Sequence record: NC_054922.1 | Length of the DNA: 64,000 nt | Direction: 5' to 3' (one strand) | DNA from: Escherichia phage vB_EcoM_KAW1E185 | Part shown: piece after piece, positions 45,197 to 55,707 of the stretch | Numbering within the stretch: the stretch's first letter is position 1 | Layout of the letters: each line of letters begins with the position of its first letter | Position numbers and translations under genes: made by a program | The notes under the pieces: generated by a model | What the model saw: only the letters and a program-made list of their open reading frames with translations | What the model was told of the DNA's origin: nothing | Database searches by the model: none

Positions 45197-45307
<111 letters not shown>

Positions 45308-45373
45308 CAAGCAGAAGACGGCATACGAGATCGATCGGTGTCTCGTGGGCTCGGAGATGTGTATAAGAGACAG
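45308..45373. other. Illumina Nextera i7 index adapter: P7 (CAAGCAGAAGACGGCATACGAGAT), 8-nt index CGATCGGT, GTCTCGTGGGCTCGG, mosaic end AGATGTGTATAAGAGACAG
   Basis: Exact match to the canonical Nextera index-2 primer architecture, recognised from memory; not phage sequence. Confidence 0.95.
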
Positions 45374-45428
45374 ATTATATACCATCCGAATCTTAAAGTA
45401 AACAAGTATAAATACTTATTATTGAAAA
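45374..45428. repeat. 55-bp direct repeat, copy 2 (native rnh-34 intergenic sequence)
   Basis: Identical to 45197-45251; continues into the gene 34 ribosome-binding site. Confidence 0.95.
45407..45414 (+). promoter_or_regulatory. T4-type late promoter TATAAATA for gene 34
   Basis: TATAAATA 35 nt upstream of the gene 34 ATG; duplicated at 45230-45237 within the artefactual repeat. Confidence 0.55.
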
Positions 45429-45448: not shown

Positions 45449-48400
45449 ATGGCCGAGATTAAAAGAAAGTTCAGAGCAGAAGATGGTCTGGACGCAGGTG
45501 GCGATAAAATAATCAACGTAGCTTTAGCTGATCGTGCCGTAGGAACTGACGGTGTTAACGTTGATTACCTAATTCAAGAAAACACAGTTCAACAATACGA
45601 TCCAACTCGTGGATATTTAAAAGATTTTGTAATCATTTATGATAACCGCTTTTGGGCTGCTATAAATGATATTCCAAAACCGGCAGGAGCTTTTAATAGC
45701 GGACGCTGGAGAGCATTACGTACCGATGCTAACTGGATTACAGTCTCATCTGGTTCATATCAATTAAAATCCGGTGAAGCTATTTCGGTTAACACTGCAG
45801 CTGGTAATGATATTACATTTACTTTACCATCTACCCCAATTGGCGGTGATACTATCGTTCTCCAAGATATTGGAGGAAAACCTGGAGTTAACCAAGTTTT
45901 AATTGTAGCTCCAGTGCAAAGTATTGTAAACTTTAGAGGCGAACAAGTACGTTCAGTACTAATGACTCATCCAAAGTCGCAGTTAGTTTTAATTTTTAGT
46001 AATCGTCTGTGGCAAATGTATGTAGCTGATTATAGTAGAGAAGCTGTAGTTGTAACACCAGCGAATACTTATCAAGCGCAATCTAATGATTTTATCGTAC
46101 GTAGATTTACTTCTGCTGCACCGATAAATATTAAACTTCCGAGATTTGCTAATCACGGCGATATTATTAATTTCGTCGATTTAGATAAACTAAATCCGCT
46201 TTATCATACAATTGTTACTACATACGATGAAACGACATCAGTACAAGAAGATGGAACTCATTCCATTGAAGGCCGTACATCTATTGATGGTTTCTTGATG
46301 TATGATGATAATGAGAAATTATGGAGATTATTTGACGGGGATAGTAAAGCACGTTTACGCATTATAACAACCAATTCTAATATTCGTCCAAATGAAGAAG
46401 TTATGGTATTTGGTGCGAATAATGGAACAACCCAAACAATTGAACTTCAGCTTCCAACTAATATTTCTGTTGGTGATACTGTCAAAATTTCCATGAATTA
46501 CATGCGAAAAGGACAAACAGTTAAAATCAAAGCTGCCGGTGAAGATAAAATTGCTTCTTCAGTTCAATTGCTGCAGTTCCCAAAACGTTCAGAGTATCCA
46601 CCTGAAGCTGAATGGGTAACTGTTCAAGAATTAGTTTTTAACGGTGAAACTAATTATGTTCCAGTTTTACAACTTGCTTATATAGAAGATTCTGATGGAA
46701 AATACTGGGTTGTACAACAAAACGTTCCAACCGTAGAAAGAGTAGACTCTTTGAATGATTCTACTAGAGCAAGATTAGGCGTAATTGCTTTAGCTACACA
46801 AGCTCAAGCTAATGCCGATTTAGAAAATTCTCCACAAAAAGAATTAGCAATTACTCCAGAAACATTAGCTAACCGTACTGCTACAGAAACTCGTAGAGGT
46901 ATCGCAAGAATAGCAACTACTGCTCAAGTAAACCAGGATACTACATTCTCTTTTGCTGACGATATTATCATCACTCCTAAAAAGCTGAATGAAAGAACTG
47001 CTACAGAAACTCGCAGAGGTGTTGCTGAAATTGCTACGCAACAGGAAACTAATGCAGGTACTGATGATACTACAATCATCACTCCTAAAAAGCTTCAAGC
47101 TCGTCAGGGTTCTGAATCATTATCTGGTATTGTAACCTTTGTATCTACCGCAGGAGCTACTCCAGCTTCTAGTCGTGAATTAAATGGTACAAACGTTTAT
47201 AATAAAAACACTAATAATTTAGTTGTTTCGCCTAAAGCTCTGGATCAGTATAAAGCTACTCCAACACAACAAGGTGCAGTAATTTTAGCAGTTGAAAGCG
47301 AAGTAATTGCTGGACAAAGCCAAGAAGGATGGGCAAATGCGGTTGTAACGCCAGAAACGTTACATAAAAAGACATCAACTGATGGAAGAATTGGTTTAAT
47401 TGAAATTGCTACACAAAGTGAAGTTAATACAGGAACTGATTATACTCGTGCAGTCACTCCTAAAACTTTAAATGACCGTAAAGCAACTGAAAGTTTAAGT
47501 GGTATAGCTGAAATTGCTACACAAGTTGAATTCGACGCAGGCGTCGACGATACTCGTATCTCTACACCATTAAAAATTAAAACTAGATTTAATAGTACTG
47601 ATCGTACTTCTGTTGTTGCTCTATCTGGATTAGTTGAATCAGGAACTCTCTGGGACCATTATACCCTTAATATTCTTGAAGCAAATGAGACACAGCGTGG
47701 TACACTTCGTGTAGCTACACAAGTTGAAGCTGCTGCAGGAACATTAGATAATGTTTTAATAACTCCTAAAAAGCTTTTAGGTACTAAATCTACTGAAGCA
47801 CAGGAAGGTGTTATTAAAGTTGCAACCCAGTCTGAAACTGTGACTGGAACGTCAGCAAATACTGCTGTATCTCCAAAAAATTTAAAATGGATTGTGCAGA
47901 GTGAACCTACTTGGGCAGCTACTACTGCGATAAGAGGCTTTGTTAAAACTTCATCTGGTTCAATTACATTCGTTGGTAATGATACAGTTGGTTCAACACA
48001 GTCGTTAGAATTATACGAGAAAAATAGCTATGCAGTATCACCATATGAATTAAACCGTGTATTAGCAAATTATTTGCCATTAAAAGCAAAGGCTGCTGAT
48101 ACAAATTTATTGGATGGTCTAGATTCATCCCAGTTCATTCGTAGGGATATTGCACAGACAGTTAATGGTTCACTAACCTTAACCCAACAAACGAATCTGA
48201 GTGCCCCTCTTGTATCATCTAGTACTGCTACGTTTGGCGGATCAGTTTCGGCAAACAGCACATTAACTATTTCTAATACTGGAACGGCAACTCGTCTGAT
48301 TTTTGAGAAAGGACCTCAAACTGGAACTAACCCAGTGCAGACGATGACTATCAGAGTTTGGGGAAATCAGTTCGGTGGCGGTTCAGATACAACACGTTCT

Positions 48401-49318
48401 ACGGTATTTGAAGTTGGTGATGAAACGTCTAATCACTTTTATTCTCAACGTAATAAAGCTGGGAATATAACGTTTAGTATCAATGGTACTGTAATGCCAA
48501 TAAATGTTAATGCTTCGGGTTCTTTGAACGCGGGCGGCGTTGCAACATTTGGTAGTTCAGTTACAGCCAATGGTGAATTCATCAGCAAGTCTGCAAATGC
48601 TTTCAGAGCAATAAATGGCGACTATGGATTCTTTATTCGCAATGATGCTGCTAACACCTATTTTATGCTTACTGCATCGGGTGATCAGACTGGTGGATTT
48701 AATGGATTACGTCCTTTAGCTATTAATAATGCATCTGGTCAAGTAACGATTGGTGAAAGCTTAATCATTGCCAAAGGTGCTACTATAAATTCAGGTGGTT
48801 TAACTGTTAACTCGAGAATTCGTTCTCAGGGTACTAAAACCGCTGATTTATACACCCGTGCACCGACATCTGATACTGTAGGATTCTGGTCAATTGACAT
48901 TAATGATTCAGCCACTTATAATCAGTTCCCAGGTTATTTTAAAATGGTTGAAAAAACTAATGAAGTGACTGGACTTCCATACTTAGAACGCGGTGAAGAA
49001 GTTAAATCTCCTGGTACATTGACTCAGTTTGGTAACACACTTGACTCGCTTTACCAAGATTGGATTACTTATCCAACAACTCCAGAAGCGCGTACCACTC
49101 GCTGGACACGTACATGGCAGAAAACCAAAAACTCTTGGTCAAGTTTTGTTCAGGTATTTGACGGAGGTAACCCTCCTCAACCATCTGACATCGGTGCTTT
49201 ACCATCTGATAATGCTACAATGGGCAATCTTACTATTCGTGATTTCTTACGAATTGGTAATGTTCGCATTATTCCTGACCCAGTGAATAAAACTGTTAAA
49301 TTTGAATGGGTTGAATAA
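45449..49318 (+). CDS. 34: Long tail fibre proximal subunit gp34
   Basis: 1289-aa ORF recognised as T4 gp34 (same length); internal repeats such as ...RTATETRRG(I/V)A(R/E)IAT... Confidence 0.93.
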   Translation: MAEIKRKFRAEDGLDAGGDKIINVALADRAVGTDGVNVDYLIQENTVQQYDPTRGYLKDFVIIYDNRFWAAINDIPKPAGAFNSGRWRALRTDANWITVSSGSYQLKSGEAISVNTAAGNDITFTLPSTPIGGDTIVLQDIGGKPGVNQVLIVAPVQSIVNFRGEQVRSVLMTHPKSQLVLIFSNRLWQMYVADYSREAVVVTPANTYQAQSNDFIVRRFTSAAPINIKLPRFANHGDIINFVDLDKLNPLYHTIVTTYDETTSVQEDGTHSIEGRTSIDGFLMYDDNEKLWRLFDGDSKARLRIITTNSNIRPNEEVMVFGANNGTTQTIELQLPTNISVGDTVKISMNYMRKGQTVKIKAAGEDKIASSVQLLQFPKRSEYPPEAEWVTVQELVFNGETNYVPVLQLAYIEDSDGKYWVVQQNVPTVERVDSLNDSTRARLGVIALATQAQANADLENSPQKELAITPETLANRTATETRRGIARIATTAQVNQDTTFSFADDIIITPKKLNERTATETRRGVAEIATQQETNAGTDDTTIITPKKLQARQGSESLSGIVTFVSTAGATPASSRELNGTNVYNKNTNNLVVSPKALDQYKATPTQQGAVILAVESEVIAGQSQEGWANAVVTPETLHKKTSTDGRIGLIEIATQSEVNTGTDYTRAVTPKTLNDRKATESLSGIAEIATQVEFDAGVDDTRISTPLKIKTRFNSTDRTSVVALSGLVESGTLWDHYTLNILEANETQRGTLRVATQVEAAAGTLDNVLITPKKLLGTKSTEAQEGVIKVATQSETVTGTSANTAVSPKNLKWIVQSEPTWAATTAIRGFVKTSSGSITFVGNDTVGSTQSLELYEKNSYAVSPYELNRVLANYLPLKAKAADTNLLDGLDSSQFIRRDIAQTVNGSLTLTQQTNLSAPLVSSSTATFGGSVSANSTLTISNTGTATRLIFEKGPQTGTNPVQTMTIRVWGNQFGGGSDTTRSTVFEVGDETSNHFYSQRNKAGNITFSINGTVMPINVNASGSLNAGGVATFGSSVTANGEFISKSANAFRAINGDYGFFIRNDAANTYFMLTASGDQTGGFNGLRPLAINNASGQVTIGESLIIAKGATINSGGLTVNSRIRSQGTKTADLYTRAPTSDTVGFWSIDINDSATYNQFPGYFKMVEKTNEVTGLPYLERGEEVKSPGTLTQFGNTLDSLYQDWITYPTTPEARTTRWTRTWQKTKNSWSSFVQVFDGGNPPQPSDIGALPSDNATMGNLTIRDFLRIGNVRIIPDPVNKTVKFEWVE

Positions 49319-49326
49319 GAGGTATT

Positions 49327-50442
49327 ATGGAAAAATTTATGGCAGAGTTTGGACAAGGATATGTCCAAACGCCATTTTTATCGGAAAGCAATTCAGTAAG
49401 ATATAAAATAAGTATAGCGGGTTCTTGCCCGCTTTCTACAGCAGGACCATACGTTAAATTTCAGGATAATCCTGTAGGAAGTCAAACATTTAGCGCAGGC
49501 CTTCATTTAAGAGTTTTTGACCCTTCTACAGGAGCATTAGTTGATAGTAAGTCATATGCTTTTTCGACTTCAAATGATACTACATCAGCTGCTTTTGTTA
49601 GTTTCATGAATTCTTTGACGAATAATAGAATTGTTGCTATATTAACTAGCGGAAAGGTTAATTTTCCTCCTGAAGTAGTATCTTGGTTAAGAACCGCAGG
49701 AACGTCTGCTTTTCCATCTGACTCTATATTGTCAAGATTCGACGTATCATATGCTGCTTTTTATACTTCTTCTAAAAGAGCTATCGCATTAGAGCATGTT
49801 AAACTGAGTAATAGAAAAAGCACAGATGATTATCAAACTATTTTAGATGTTGTATTTGACAGTTTAGAAGACGTCGGAGCTACCGGGTTTCCAAGAAGAA
49901 CGTATGAAAGCGTTGAGCAATTCATGTCAGCGGTTGGTGGAACTAATAACGAAATTGCGCGTCTACCAACTTCAGCTACTATAAGTAAATTATCTGATTA
50001 TAATTTAATTCCTGGCGATGTTCTTTATCTTAAAGCTCAGTTATATGCTGATGCCGATTTACTTGCTCTTGGAACTACAAATATATCTATCCGTTTTTAT
50101 AATGCATCAAATGGATATATTTCCTCGACACAAGCTGAATTTACCGGGCAAGCTGGATCTTGGGAATTAAAGGAAGATTATGTAGTTGTTCCAGAAAACG
50201 CGGTAGGATTTACGATATACGCACAAAGAACTGCACAAGCAGGTCAAGGTGGCATGAGAAATTTAAGCTTTTCTGAAGTATCAAGAAACGGCGGTATTTC
50301 AAAACCCGCTGAATTTGGCGTCAATGGTATTCGTGTTAATTATATCTGTGAATCTGCTTCACCTCCGGATATAATGGTACTTCCTACACAAGCATCGTCT
50401 AAAACTGGTAAAGTGTTTGGGCAAGAATTTAGAGAAGTATAA
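49327..50442 (+). CDS. 35: Long tail fibre hinge connector gp35
   Basis: 371-aa ORF; T4 position. Confidence 0.88.
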   Translation: MEKFMAEFGQGYVQTPFLSESNSVRYKISIAGSCPLSTAGPYVKFQDNPVGSQTFSAGLHLRVFDPSTGALVDSKSYAFSTSNDTTSAAFVSFMNSLTNNRIVAILTSGKVNFPPEVVSWLRTAGTSAFPSDSILSRFDVSYAAFYTSSKRAIALEHVKLSNRKSTDDYQTILDVVFDSLEDVGATGFPRRTYESVEQFMSAVGGTNNEIARLPTSATISKLSDYNLIPGDVLYLKAQLYADADLLALGTTNISIRFYNASNGYISSTQAEFTGQAGSWELKEDYVVVPENAVGFTIYAQRTAQAGQGGMRNLSFSEVSRNGGISKPAEFGVNGIRVNYICESASPPDIMVLPTQASSKTGKVFGQEFREV

Positions 50443-50504: not shown

Positions 50505-51170
50505 ATGGCTGATTTAAAAGTAGGTTCAACAACCGGAGGCTCTGTCATTTGGCATCAAGGAAATTTTCCATTGAATCCAGCCGGTGACGATGTACTCTAT
50601 AAATCATTTAAAATATATTCAGAATATAATAAACCACAAGCTGCTGATAACGATTTCGTTTCTAAAGCTAATGGTGGTACTTATGCATCAAAGGTAACAT
50701 TTAACGGTGGAGTTCAAGTTCCGTATGCTGTAAACAACACAAACCCATGCGGTGTTTATCCAGGTAACGGTGATAATGCTACTTTTGCTGTAGCAAATAT
50801 CGATATTGTTTCGTGGAATGGTATTGGTTTTAAATCATCACAAGGTTCAGCAGCTCGAACTGTTGTAATTAATGCACGTAATGGTGATATTAGTACAAAA
50901 GGCGTTGTGTCGGCAGCAGGTCAAGTAAGAAGTGATGCGGCTGCTCCTATAGCAGCGAATGACCTTACTAGAAAGGACTATGTTGATGGAGCAATAAATA
51001 CTGTTACGGCAAATGCAAACTCTAGGGTGCTACGGTCTGGTGACACCATGATAGGTAATTTAACAGCGCCAAACTTTTTCTCGCAGAATCCTGCATCTCA
51101 ACCTTCACACGTTCCACGATTTGACCAAATCGTAATTAAGGATTCTGTTCAAGATTTCGGCTATTATTAA
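50505..51170 (+). CDS. 36: Long tail fibre distal connector gp36
   Basis: 221-aa ORF; T4 length. Confidence 0.9.
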
Positions 51171-51178
51171 GAGGACTT

Positions 51179-54100
51179 ATGGCTACTTTAAAACAAATAC
51201 AATTTAAAAGAAGCAAAACCGCAGGTGCACGTCCTGCTGCTTCAGTATTAGCCGAAGGTGAATTGGCTATAAACTTAAAAGATAGAACAATTTTTACTAA
51301 AGATGACACAGGAAATATCATCGATTTAAGCATTTCTACTGGCGGTAATATCAGTGGTAATATCACTCAAACTGGTGATTATACACAGACTGGAAAATTT
51401 AATTTAATTGGTCCGCAAATTGTAGCAAGCGGTGGATATATTGAGTTTAATTATCGTACTACTGGAAGTGGGGCTTGGTCCGGTCAACATACTGCGAAAG
51501 CTCCAATTTTTGTAGATTTAAGCTCAGCTACTTCCACATCTGAATATAATCCTATAATTAAACAGCGCTTTAAAGATGGAACTTTTTCATTAGGTACTTT
51601 AGTTTCTGAAGGTTCGTTGAAGATTCATTATATCAATGAATCTGGCGATTCGAAATATTGGACGTTTCGACGTGACGGCGGATTTACTGTTGACGGTGGA
51701 GGTTTAGCAGTATCAGGAGGTAGTATAACTACATCTGGAAATATCGCAGCTATTGGAAATATTACTTCGCCTCAGATTAATACTAAAAATATTATTTTAG
51801 ATACAAAAGCATTTGGACAATACGATTCGCAATCATTAGTTCAATATGTTTATCCTGGAACAGGCGAAGAAAATGGTATAAACTATCTTCGTAAAGTTCG
51901 AGCTAAATCAGGCGGTACAATTTATCATGAATTAGCTTCTGCGCAAACCGGAAAAAGTGATGAACTTTCTTGGTGGACTGGTAATACAGCCGTTAATAAA
52001 CAAATGGGTCTTCGTAATGATGGGGCTTTAGTATTACGACGCTCACTCGCAATTGGTACAATTACAACAGATGAAAACATTAATAACTACGGCTCCGCTG
52101 GAGCAATGGGCGAATGTTATATAGTTATCGGTGATGCATCAACAGGCTTATCATACAAAAAAACTGGAGTATATGATTTAGTTGCTAGTGGTCTTTCTTT
52201 AGCATCTATTACTCCTGATAGTTTCCGTAGTACCCGTAAAGCGATTTTTGGTCGTTCCGAGGACCAAGGTACAACATGGATTATGCCTGGAACCAACGCC
52301 GCGTTTTTATCGGTTCAAACACAAGCTGATGAAAACACTGCTGGAGACGGCCAGACGCATATTGGCTATAACTCAGGCGGAAAAATGAACCACTATTTCC
52401 GTGGTAAAGGCAAAACTAATATTAATACTCAAGAAGGCATGGAAGTTAACCCGGGTATTTTGAAATTGGTAACTGGCTCTAATAATGTAATGTTTTATGC
52501 TGATGGCGGTATTACATCTGTTAAGCAGCTTTCAATATATAATGGCATATATTTAGCAGCTAATAATTCTACTGCTGGGCTAACATTCGCTCCAACTACT
52601 ACAATTGATGGTACTAAGCAAATTTTGTGGGAAGGCGGTACTCGTGCTGGGCAGAATAAAAGCTATGTAACTGTTAAAGCATGGGGTAATTCATTTAACG
52701 CATCTGGCGATCGTAATCGTGAAACGGTTTTTGAAGTAGCTGATGGACAAGGATATTATTTTTATTCACAGCGTGTGGCTCCAAGTGGCTCTGAAACTAC
52801 TGGGCCTGTTGTAACCCAGTTCAATGGACAAGTTAATGCTAGAGGAAGTATTATTACTGACGGAAGTTTTAAAGTTAATGGATTAAGCACTTTAGTCGGT
52901 AATGTTACCATGTCTAATGGTTTGTTTGTCCAAGGTGGTTCTTCTATTACTGGACAAGTAAAAATTGGTGGAACTGTTGATGCATTAAGAATTTGGAATG
53001 CCGAATACGGTGCTATTTTCCGTCGCTCAGAAACAGCATTACATATTATCCCGACTCCTAAAGATGCCGGTGAAAGTGGTGGAATAAGTAATCTCCGCCC
53101 ACTTAGTATTAGCCTTAATAATGGTATGGTGCAAATGCGTCATTCCGTTACATTAGGTGATGATGGTGCAGGCGGTAATATGGTGACGGTTGATAATGAT
53201 TCTAAAGTTATGGTAATGACGACTAATAGCCGTATTAGTCCTAACTTCCGTATGCAAATTGGACGGTCGTCTTATATTGATGTGGAATGTACTGATGCTG
53301 TGAGACCTGCTGGAGCCGGTTCTTTTGCTTCACAGAATAACGAAAACGTTCGCGCTCCGTTCTATATGAATATTGATAGAACAGATACAAGCACTTATGT
53401 TCCTATTGTGAAACAAAGATACGTTCAAAATAATAGTTGCTATTCTATTGGTACTTTAATTAATGGTGGTAACTTTAGAGTTCATTATCATGAAGGCGGA
53501 GACGGCGTTTCTACTGGTGCTATTATAAAGGATCTTGGATGGGAATTTAATAAAAACGGTGATTTTTATTCTCCTGGTAAATTAGGCGCTGGAAATATTA
53601 GAATAGGTACTGATGGTAATATTACTGGCGGAACTGGTAACTTTGCTAACTTGAACACAACTATCGAATCATTAAAAACCGATATTGTATCGAGTTACCC
53701 AATCGGTGCTCCTATTCCATGGCCAACGGATACTCCTCCTGACGGTTACGCTATTATGGAAGGCCAGACTTTTGATAAGTCTGCATACCCAAAATTGGCT
53801 ATGGCTTACCCATCTGGCGTAATTCCAGATATGCGCGGGCAAACTATTAAAGGTAAACCAAGTGGTCGAGCTGTATTAAGCGCAGAAGCCGATGGTGTTA
53901 AGGCTCATAGCCATAGTGCATCGGCTTCAAGTACTGACTTGGGTACTAAAACTACGTCGAGTTTTGATTATGGTACTAAGACGACAAGTAGCTTTGACTA
54001 TGGCACTAAGACTAGCAATACCACAGGTAACCACTCTCATACTGTAAGCGGTACTACGAGTTCTGCTGGTGCACACCAACATGCGCGCTCAGGTCCTCAG

Positions 54101-54451
54101 ATACAAGCCGGCATACCCAATAACATATTCTATGACGGATATAATAGTGTAGGTGCAAACGCCAACGCTAAATTCACTGGAACCGTGAACGGTGCTACTG
54201 TAGGGTCGAATATAGCCAAAACTTCTTCAGACGGTGCTCATACTCATACTTGGTCTGGTACTACAAGCACTACAGGTAACCATGCTCACACAGTAGGTAT
54301 TGGTGCTCATACCCATACTGTAGGTATCGGTGCTCATACCCACACGGTAGCAATTGGCTCGCATGGTCATACTATCACTGTAAATAGTACAGGTAATACA
54401 GAAAACACGGTTAAAAACATTGCTTTTAACTATATCGTTCGTTTAGCATAA
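51179..54451 (+). CDS. 37: Long tail fibre distal subunit / receptor-binding protein gp37
   Basis: 1090-aa ORF; N-terminal part gp36-like, C-terminal tip with repeated His-x-His boxes ([16 protein letters not shown]...) as in T4-type gp37; longer than the 1026 aa I recall for T4. Confidence 0.9.
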
Positions 54452-54481
54452 GGAGAGGGGCTTCGGCCCCTTCTGAATATG
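54451..54481 (+). promoter_or_regulatory. Gene 38 translation initiation region with a C(UUCG)G hairpin between the Shine-Dalgarno and the ATG
   Basis: AGGAG at 54451-54455, hairpin GGGGC-UUCG-GCCCC at 54457-54470, ATG at 54479; the hairpin shortens the effective SD-ATG spacing. Confidence 0.6.
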
Positions 54482-55050: not shown

Positions 55051-55707
55051 ATGGCAGCACCTAGAATATCATTTTCGCCCTCTGATATTCTATTTGGTGT
55101 TCTAGATCGCTTGTTCAAAGATAACGCTACCGGGAAAGTTCTTGCTTCCCGGGTAGCTGTCGTAATTCTTTTATTTATGATGGCGATTGTTTGGTATAGG
55201 GGAGATAGTTTCTTTGAGTACTATAAGCAATCAAAGTATGAAACATACAGTGAAATTATTGAAAAGGAAAGAAATGCACGCTTTGAATCTGTCGCCCTGG
55301 AACAACTCCAGATAGTTCATATATCATCTGAGGCAGACTTTAGTGTGGTGTATTCTTTCCGCCCTAAAAACTTAAACTATTTTGTTGATATTATAGCATA
55401 TGAAGGAAAATTACCTTCAACAATAAGTGAAAAATCACTTGGAGGATATCCTGTTGATAAAACTATGGATGAATATGCAGTTCATTTAAATGGACGTCAT
55501 TATTATTCTGACTCAAAATTTGCTTTTTTACCAACTAAAAAGCCTACTCCCGAAATAAACTACATGTATAGTTGTCCATATTTTAATTTGGATAATATCT
55601 ATGCTGGAACAATAACAATGTACTGGTATAGAAATGATCATATAAGTAATGACCGCCTTGAATCAATATGTGCTCAGGCGGCCAGAATATTAGGAAGGGC
55701 TAAATAA
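55051..55707 (+). CDS. t: Holin T
   Basis: 218-aa ORF with one N-terminal transmembrane segment and a large periplasmic domain; T4 T length and position. Confidence 0.88.
   Translation: MAAPRISFSPSDILFGVLDRLFKDNATGKVLASRVAVVILLFMMAIVWYRGDSFFEYYKQSKYETYSEIIEKERNARFESVALEQLQIVHISSEADFSVVYSFRPKNLNYFVDIIAYEGKLPSTISEKSLGGYPVDKTMDEYAVHLNGRHYYSDSKFAFLPTKKPTPEINYMYSCPYFNLDNIYAGTITMYWYRNDHISNDRLESICAQAARILGRAK

Follow-up and report, generated by a model that had tools for sequence, protein, structure and literature searches.

The distal subunit of the long tail fibre (gp37) encoded in the window, which here means the whole analysed stretch of 64,000 nucleotides of Escherichia phage vB_EcoM_KAW1E185 (NC_054922.1), very probably ends in a T4-type receptor-binding tip of the common long-stem form, in which two tandem repeat arrays together make up one extra rung of the stem. 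One array lies before a variable head and carries no histidines, the other follows the head and consists of histidine units, and each contains one unit more than the corresponding part of T4.

The genes for the long tail fibre were present in the order gp34-35-36-37-38-t, which is the order in T4 (Table 1). The earlier note on this DNA had assigned the gene to gp37 and estimated the protein of 1090 aa to be about 60 aa longer than in T4. This was confirmed, as T4 gp37 comprises 1026 aa and the difference is 64 aa. The alignment assigned a net 16 of the additional residues to aa 80-184 near the N-terminus, 11 to aa 557-662 in the shaft, and 37 to the tip. The gain in the tip consisted of 10 residues from an ascending unit, 15 and 3 (together 18) in the head, and 9 from a GIGAHTHTV unit. 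The enlarged tip of the earlier note was thus borne out by 37 of the 64 extra residues and by one copy of each repeat above T4; the alignment with T4 neither placed the extra length outside the tip nor gave a repeat number equal to that of T4. The repeats and the head are encoded by the last 190 codons of the gene.

Table 1. Positions of the long tail fibre genes and of the parts of the gp37 tip in the window.
Feature	Position	Strand	Remarks
gp34	45449-49318		long-tail-fibre cluster
gp35	49327-50442		long-tail-fibre cluster
gp36	50505-51170		long-tail-fibre cluster
Gene 37, distal subunit of the long tail fibre, with adhesin at the C-terminus	51179-54451	+	ORF, 1090 aa
Collar domain, aa 843-890	53705-53848	+	Pfam PF07484; aligns to 2XGF collar
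His-x-His motif 1 (H910-S-H912), needle base, ascending strand	53906-53914	+	corresponds to T4 H883/H885
Ascending-strand array, no histidines, three 10-aa units	53942-54031	+	T4 has one full unit fewer
Upper ascending stem, His-x-His motifs 2 (H952/H954) and 3 (H966/H968), 14 residues apart	54032-54082	+	corresponds to T4 H915/917 and H929/931
Head (tip) subdomain, aa 969-1020, variable, presumed receptor-contact region	54083-54238	+	from alignment to T4
Upper descending stem, His-x-His motifs 4 (H1021/1023) and 5 (H1035/1037), 14 residues apart	54239-54289	+	
Descending-strand 9-aa His ladder, His-x-His motifs 5-8	54269-54376	+	T4 has one unit fewer
C-terminal strand, conserved, running back into the collar	54377-54448	+	identical to T4
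Hairpin between GGAG and gene 38 ATG	54454-54475	+	stem GGGGC/GCCCC at 54457-54470, UUCG loop, GC-rich
Gene 38, T4-type fibre-folding chaperone, 183 aa	54479-55030	+	182/183 residues identical to T4 gp38
Holin t	55051-55707		same cluster

The homology of the tip to the solved T4 structure (PDB 2XGF) was clear, with residues 813-1090 of gp37 matching chain residues 2-242 of the T4 tip over the whole tip length (phmmer E 3.6e-94). A phage tail collar domain precedes the needle and was recognised by the Pfam model PF07484 with an E value of 2.2e-11 and 43.9 bits against a cut-off of 24. The Pfam phage tail fibre repeat PF03335 reached 16.9 bits in gp37, under the curated cut-off of 20, while T4 gp37 scored 31 bits; this is a weak model of 14 residues, and the miss leaves the homology to the T4 tip unaffected. 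Eight His-x-His motifs were located in the tip, at aa 910, 952, 966, 1021, 1035, 1044, 1053 and 1062, and they flank the variable head, with three on the ascending and five on the descending side. All seven motifs of T4 aligned and were kept, and one was added. As had been proposed, the metal ions of the solved T4 tip are coordinated by the His-x-His boxes; in the T4 needle such motifs bind seven irons (Islam 2019). The head, 18 aa longer than that of T4, aligned poorly to it, and the C-terminal strand was kept across the 100 unique tips surveyed below.

Both repeat arrays were detected by Tandem Repeats Finder, the ascending one at 53935-54014 (period 30, 2.7 copies, 74% matches, score 83) and the descending one at 54287-54350 (period 27, 2.4 copies, 86% matches, score 100). 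The tandem repeats of 30 and 27 nt described earlier are real, and their coordinates differ from those in Table 1 only in the phase of the units. In frame, the ascending units occupy 53942-53971, 53972-54001 and, as a degenerate third unit, 54002-54031. The units of the His ladder are TTGNHAHTV (54269-54295), GIGAHTHTV (54296-54322), a second GIGAHTHTV (54323-54349) and AIGSHGHTI (54350-54376). A pattern of two FDYG units gave one match in the window, compared to 0.00 in 100 shuffles. In T4 the receptor contacts were assigned to the tip subdomain between H931 and H966 (Islam 2019), and both arrays fall outside this subdomain, in the stem.

The long-stem tip is widely distributed. The 572-nt stretch from 53880 to 54451 was shared at 99% identity or more by 16 phage records in GenBank; 124 phage records were colinear with it over at least 80%, and the copy number of the arrays was constant in all of these. 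The shorter version of T4 was colinear in 26 records, 21 of them at least 99% identical to T4. Phages R5505 and 303Ecol101PP showed 99.8% nucleotide identity over the same stretch; R5505 matched at 571 of 572 nt, and its tip protein differs from that of the window by one residue. Over 53400-54451 the identity was 98.0% to vB_Eco_Some and 96.7% to Bas42 (AndreasVesalius), the gp37 of which also has 1090 aa and the same tip. Phage teqdroes (L222, MN895438.1) carries the identical tip allele, and a repeat_region of 63 nt annotated there at 1091-1153 corresponds to 54287-54349 of the window. The same tip architecture was present in Tequatrovirus FelixPlatter (Bas40), FriedrichZschokke (Bas41) and AdolfPortmann (Bas44). 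As judged from the deposited records, the adhesin is well studied and the long-stem tip is its majority form, present in well over 100 sequenced phages; the finding is thus ordinary and already known. T4 is the atypical short form in its own family, and a tip longer than that of T4 is no sign of novelty. The discovery value is small, as this is a known allele of a known gene that has been deposited repeatedly and annotated in part.

The whole gp37 differs from that of these relatives and is best described as a new three-part mosaic of their known alleles. The first 1950 nt (51179-53128) were 96-100% identical to R5505. Positions 53129-53728 were 94-100% identical to vB_Eco_Some and Bas42 and only 73-83% to R5505, and the last 720 nt or so (53729-54451) were 98-100% identical to R5505 and Some. 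The gene directly downstream encodes a T4-type gp38 chaperone and not a gp38 adhesin of the T2/T6 type. A Pfam search of gp38 gave no match; its identity as the T4 chaperone, which the earlier note had also claimed, was settled by direct comparison with T4 gp38 (Table 1).

How the two arrays relate was surveyed in T-even phages, lambdoid prophages and viral contigs, which together gave 100 unique tips. Each tip was anchored on the DMRG collar motif, and the spacing between successive His-x-His motifs was scored. A large protein search, with roughly 2,600 homologues, gave mainly prophage side tail fibres and not full-length gp37 proteins; the T-even tips were taken from GenBank records. In 42 tips the spacing from the collar His-x-His to the next ascending motif was 32, equivalent to one ascending unit, and two 9-residue steps were present at the end of the descending strand. 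In 57 tips the spacing was 42 (41 in one tip), equivalent to two ascending units, and three 9-residue steps were present. The sole exception was a gp37-like ORF (43-2346) on a metagenomic contig (L005, IMGVR_UViG_3300030021_000020) with a spacing of 42, two ascending units and two steps, which could be either a real variant or the result of a collapse in metagenomic assembly. The numbers of ascending units and descending His units therefore agreed in 99 of the 100 tips (Fisher p = 1.5e-27, uncorrected for relatedness), and part of this pattern could come from joint inheritance of the stem halves. The two arrays had previously been treated as separate features, which does not fit with their joint change. 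Modules of 14 residues nearer to the head also matched on both strands, occurring as none and none, one and one, or two and two.

Heads were clustered by single linkage at 50% identity. The cluster containing the head of the window comprised 30 distinct head sequences, and this cluster was represented among tips of both stem lengths. Four head clusters spanned both stem lengths, and in every case both repeats switched jointly. For example, AV122 with a long stem and BYEP01 and sutha with a short stem carry nearly the same head.

By this rule, tips with one more His unit still should have a correspondingly longer ascending spacer. As a test of this prediction, viral contigs were scanned with a DNA pattern of five His-x-His motifs at a period of 27 nt, the ascending side being left unspecified. 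Unrelated proteins accounted for 137 of the 140 ORFs obtained, and the comparison was restricted to tips that have the T4/lambda collar and C-terminus. The three T4/lambda-type tips (L146, L195 and L214) all had four 9-residue steps and a spacing of 52, as predicted; here a different duplication, of 20 aa, accounts for the spacing. A search from the ascending side yielded two Felixounavirus-type fibres (L099 and L100) with a spacing of 54 and four steps. VpaE1, also of the Felixounavirus type, had a spacing of 34 and two steps, and L101, a fibre with a different C-terminus, had a spacing of 44 and three steps. Roughly ten residues on the ascending side thus go with each nine-residue step on the descending side, across independent lineages and independent duplications.

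These proportions can be read on the T4 structure. In T4, G921 contacts F970, and H929 contacts G964 of a neighbouring chain (Islam 2019). It follows from these contacts that the residue numbers of facing antiparallel strands sum to about 1892, and on this register the ascending T4 unit 895-904 would face the descending His unit 988-997. According to the proposed arrangement, each chain of the trimer would climb the needle, make the head and descend again, and His-x-His pairs from the three chains would hold a line of metal ions on the axis. Along the lower stem, a His-x-His motif would recur every 9 residues on the descending strand, and the ascending strand next to it would consist of the histidine-free 10-residue units. 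One ascending and one descending unit would then form one rung with one metal (His6) site. As three 9-residue steps are present here versus two in T4, eight metal sites per trimer are predicted instead of seven. The predicted stem would be longer by about 9 residues of strand and would bear a larger and different head. On this reading the duplication is old and spread by recombination, and it sets the length of the stem and not the choice of receptor.

The sequence anatomy, the homology to the solved T4 tip and the near-perfect agreement of the two repeat counts among relatives are shown by the data, and from them we infer how the two units pair physically, the added length and an eighth metal ion. 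The ascending side gains 10 residues and the descending side 9, and this difference must be absorbed by the geometry of the strands, by means of a bulge or a different strand path. A monomer model of the 290-aa tip, calculated with AlphaFold2 from an alignment of 76 sequences, had a pLDDT of 52.4 and a pTM of 0.22 and was too poor for reading strand pairing; modelling one chain of an intertwined trimer had little prospect of success. Both stem forms are served by an identical gp38 chaperone.

The age of the duplication was estimated from the differences between its copies. The first two ascending copies agree at 22 of 30 nt (73% identity), the two GIGAHTHTV copies at 24 of 27 nt (89%). All differences are synonymous, one of them being a TCG/AGT serine switch, so the peptide is under purifying selection. 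The copy-specific sequences recur in R5505, Some, Bas42 and F2; the duplication therefore predates these phages, and to judge from such shared differences it is old and not a product of fresh slippage. Turnover of the units by recombination does still happen. In an isolate genome (L004, IMGVR_UViG_2706795401_000001, match 1501-2370) the two ascending units of 30 nt were identical at 30 of 30 positions, which points to a recent re-duplication or to gene conversion in that lineage. The single 27-nt GIGAHTHTV unit of T4 (L001), GGTATTGGTGCTCATACCCACACGGTA, is composed of the 5' part of the second and the 3' part of the third unit of the window, and this hybrid unit also occurs in BYEP01, sutha and L005. 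Such a hybrid would be the product expected from an unequal crossover between a second and a third unit of the window type.

The counts of the two arrays could also match without any structural coupling, merely because the halves of the stem travel as one backbone when heads are swapped. Heads are in fact exchanged between backbones, and most tips belong to few backbone types. We nevertheless regard this explanation as quite improbable. The match extends to independent variants, namely the tips with the 20-aa duplication (spacing 52, four steps) and two other fibre types with different collars or C-termini (the Felixounavirus type and L101), and a single crossover within a shared head would give mismatched tips, of which only one was found among 100. 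Moreover, coupling is predicted by the antiparallel geometry of 2XGF. A sequencing or assembly artefact would be another source of extra copies, and the assembly is not clean, as the window contains an untrimmed Illumina adapter at 45252-45373. This can be dismissed almost with certainty, however, because the units of 27-30 nt are far below read length, the copies are non-identical, and the same architecture occurs in more than 100 independent genomes, including that of R5505 with its nearly identical tip.

The remaining alternative is an active contingency locus, at which slippage or unequal crossing-over would often alter the copy number and hence the host range. Laboratory host-range mutants of T4 reportedly carry in-frame duplications of short segments in this same region of gp37. 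Duplications in T4 gene 37 that were selected in the laboratory are reported to extend the host range to Yersinia (Tetart et al. 1996, as cited by others). Those duplications were fresh and selected on a new host, whereas the duplication in the window is old, affects both strands and is widespread. The identical ascending units of L004, which show that homogenisation or re-duplication occurs, and the hybrid unit of T4 also speak for exchange at this locus. On the other hand, the copies of the window differ at 8 of 30 and 3 of 27 nt and share these differences with other phages, the repeat states are matched in nearly all tips, and similar heads are borne by long and short stems alike. A slippage-prone contingency repeat would have identical tandem units and a copy number that varies among near-identical genomes; the units of the window are 73% and 89% identical, and their copy number is constant in the 16 records of at least 99% identity and in all 124 colinear records. 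OmpC is the primary receptor of Bas40, 41, 42 and 44 (BASEL supplementary table), and T4 likewise needs OmpC; the tips of these four long-stem relatives are 94-97% identical to that of the window at the nucleotide level. A contingency locus is thus unlikely, and the earlier suggestion that slippage or recombination of the repeats is a route to altered host range was not upheld in view of the diverged and shared copies, the 124 versus 26 records, the position in the stem and the receptor of the relatives. The link to host range is weakened by the stem position of the repeats, by heads common to both stem lengths and by the use of OmpC in relatives with this tip, and a host-range effect of the repeats is unproven.

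The preferred reading, one additional rung in a T4-type tip, can be compared with known systems. The T4 gp37 tip (2XGF; collar, needle with seven irons, head) has the same collar, His-x-His needle, C-terminal strand and gp38 chaperone; the tip of the window differs by one more ascending unit, one more GIGAHTHTV unit, eight motifs and a head longer by 18 aa, and the rest of the fibre is longer by 27 aa. The C-termini of lambda Stf and of lambdoid prophage side tail fibres have the same collar, needle and C-terminus and follow the same unit rule, with short and long forms both occurring, but their N-terminal shafts and most of their heads are different, and Tfa takes the place of gp38. Felixounavirus fibres such as VpaE1 contain the same two kinds of unit, FDYG and 9-spaced His-x-His, in the same proportion, but have another collar and C-terminus and an extra His-x-His motif at each end. 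One modest addition to this picture is the rule by which both arrays change together as halves of a single rung; this rule may already stand in Bartual 2010. For the engineering of tips it would mean that ascending and descending units have to be added or removed jointly. The number of metal sites per fibre, which enters estimates of phage-bound iron, would vary among close relatives.

A more speculative and rather doubtful extension is that the needle length in T4/lambda-type tips serves as an evolvable ruler, which would change by whole rungs independently of the head while selection tunes the reach of the head, through surface sugar layers that differ in depth, to outer-membrane proteins. 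A stem with two, three or four of the 9-residue steps would then hold 7, 8 or more metal sites. If this were true, stem length would be a second, unrecognised determinant of host range.

Ladders of His-x-His motifs at exactly 9-residue spacing were also seen in other, unrelated-looking tail-fibre proteins from viral contigs (L102, L110, L116, L106, L107 and L117), in which no FDYG-type partner repeat was seen. Some of these ladders come after a collar-like region and have units such as HAHGVSDPG, and other 9-spaced ladders reach ten consecutive steps.

A short way upstream of gene 34, 56 consecutive T (45252-45307) lead into CAAGCAGAAGACGGCATACGAGAT, CGATCGGT, GTCTCGTGGGCTCGG and AGATGTGTATAAGAGACAG (45308-45373). 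We take the latter segment to be an Illumina P7 adapter, an 8-nt index and a Nextera read-2/mosaic-end sequence. A 55-nt stretch of the rnh-gene 34 intergenic region, present once in T4, is directly duplicated here and borders the block on both sides (45197-45251 and 45374-45428). The region 45197-45428 is an assembly artefact from an untrimmed adapter and not biology.

The hairpin preceding gene 38 (Table 1) had a minimum free energy of -15.8 kcal/mol and a z score of -2.6, and the leader sequence is nearly the same in T4. It presumably corresponds to the hairpin known from gene 38, by which a remote Shine-Dalgarno sequence is drawn close to the start codon.
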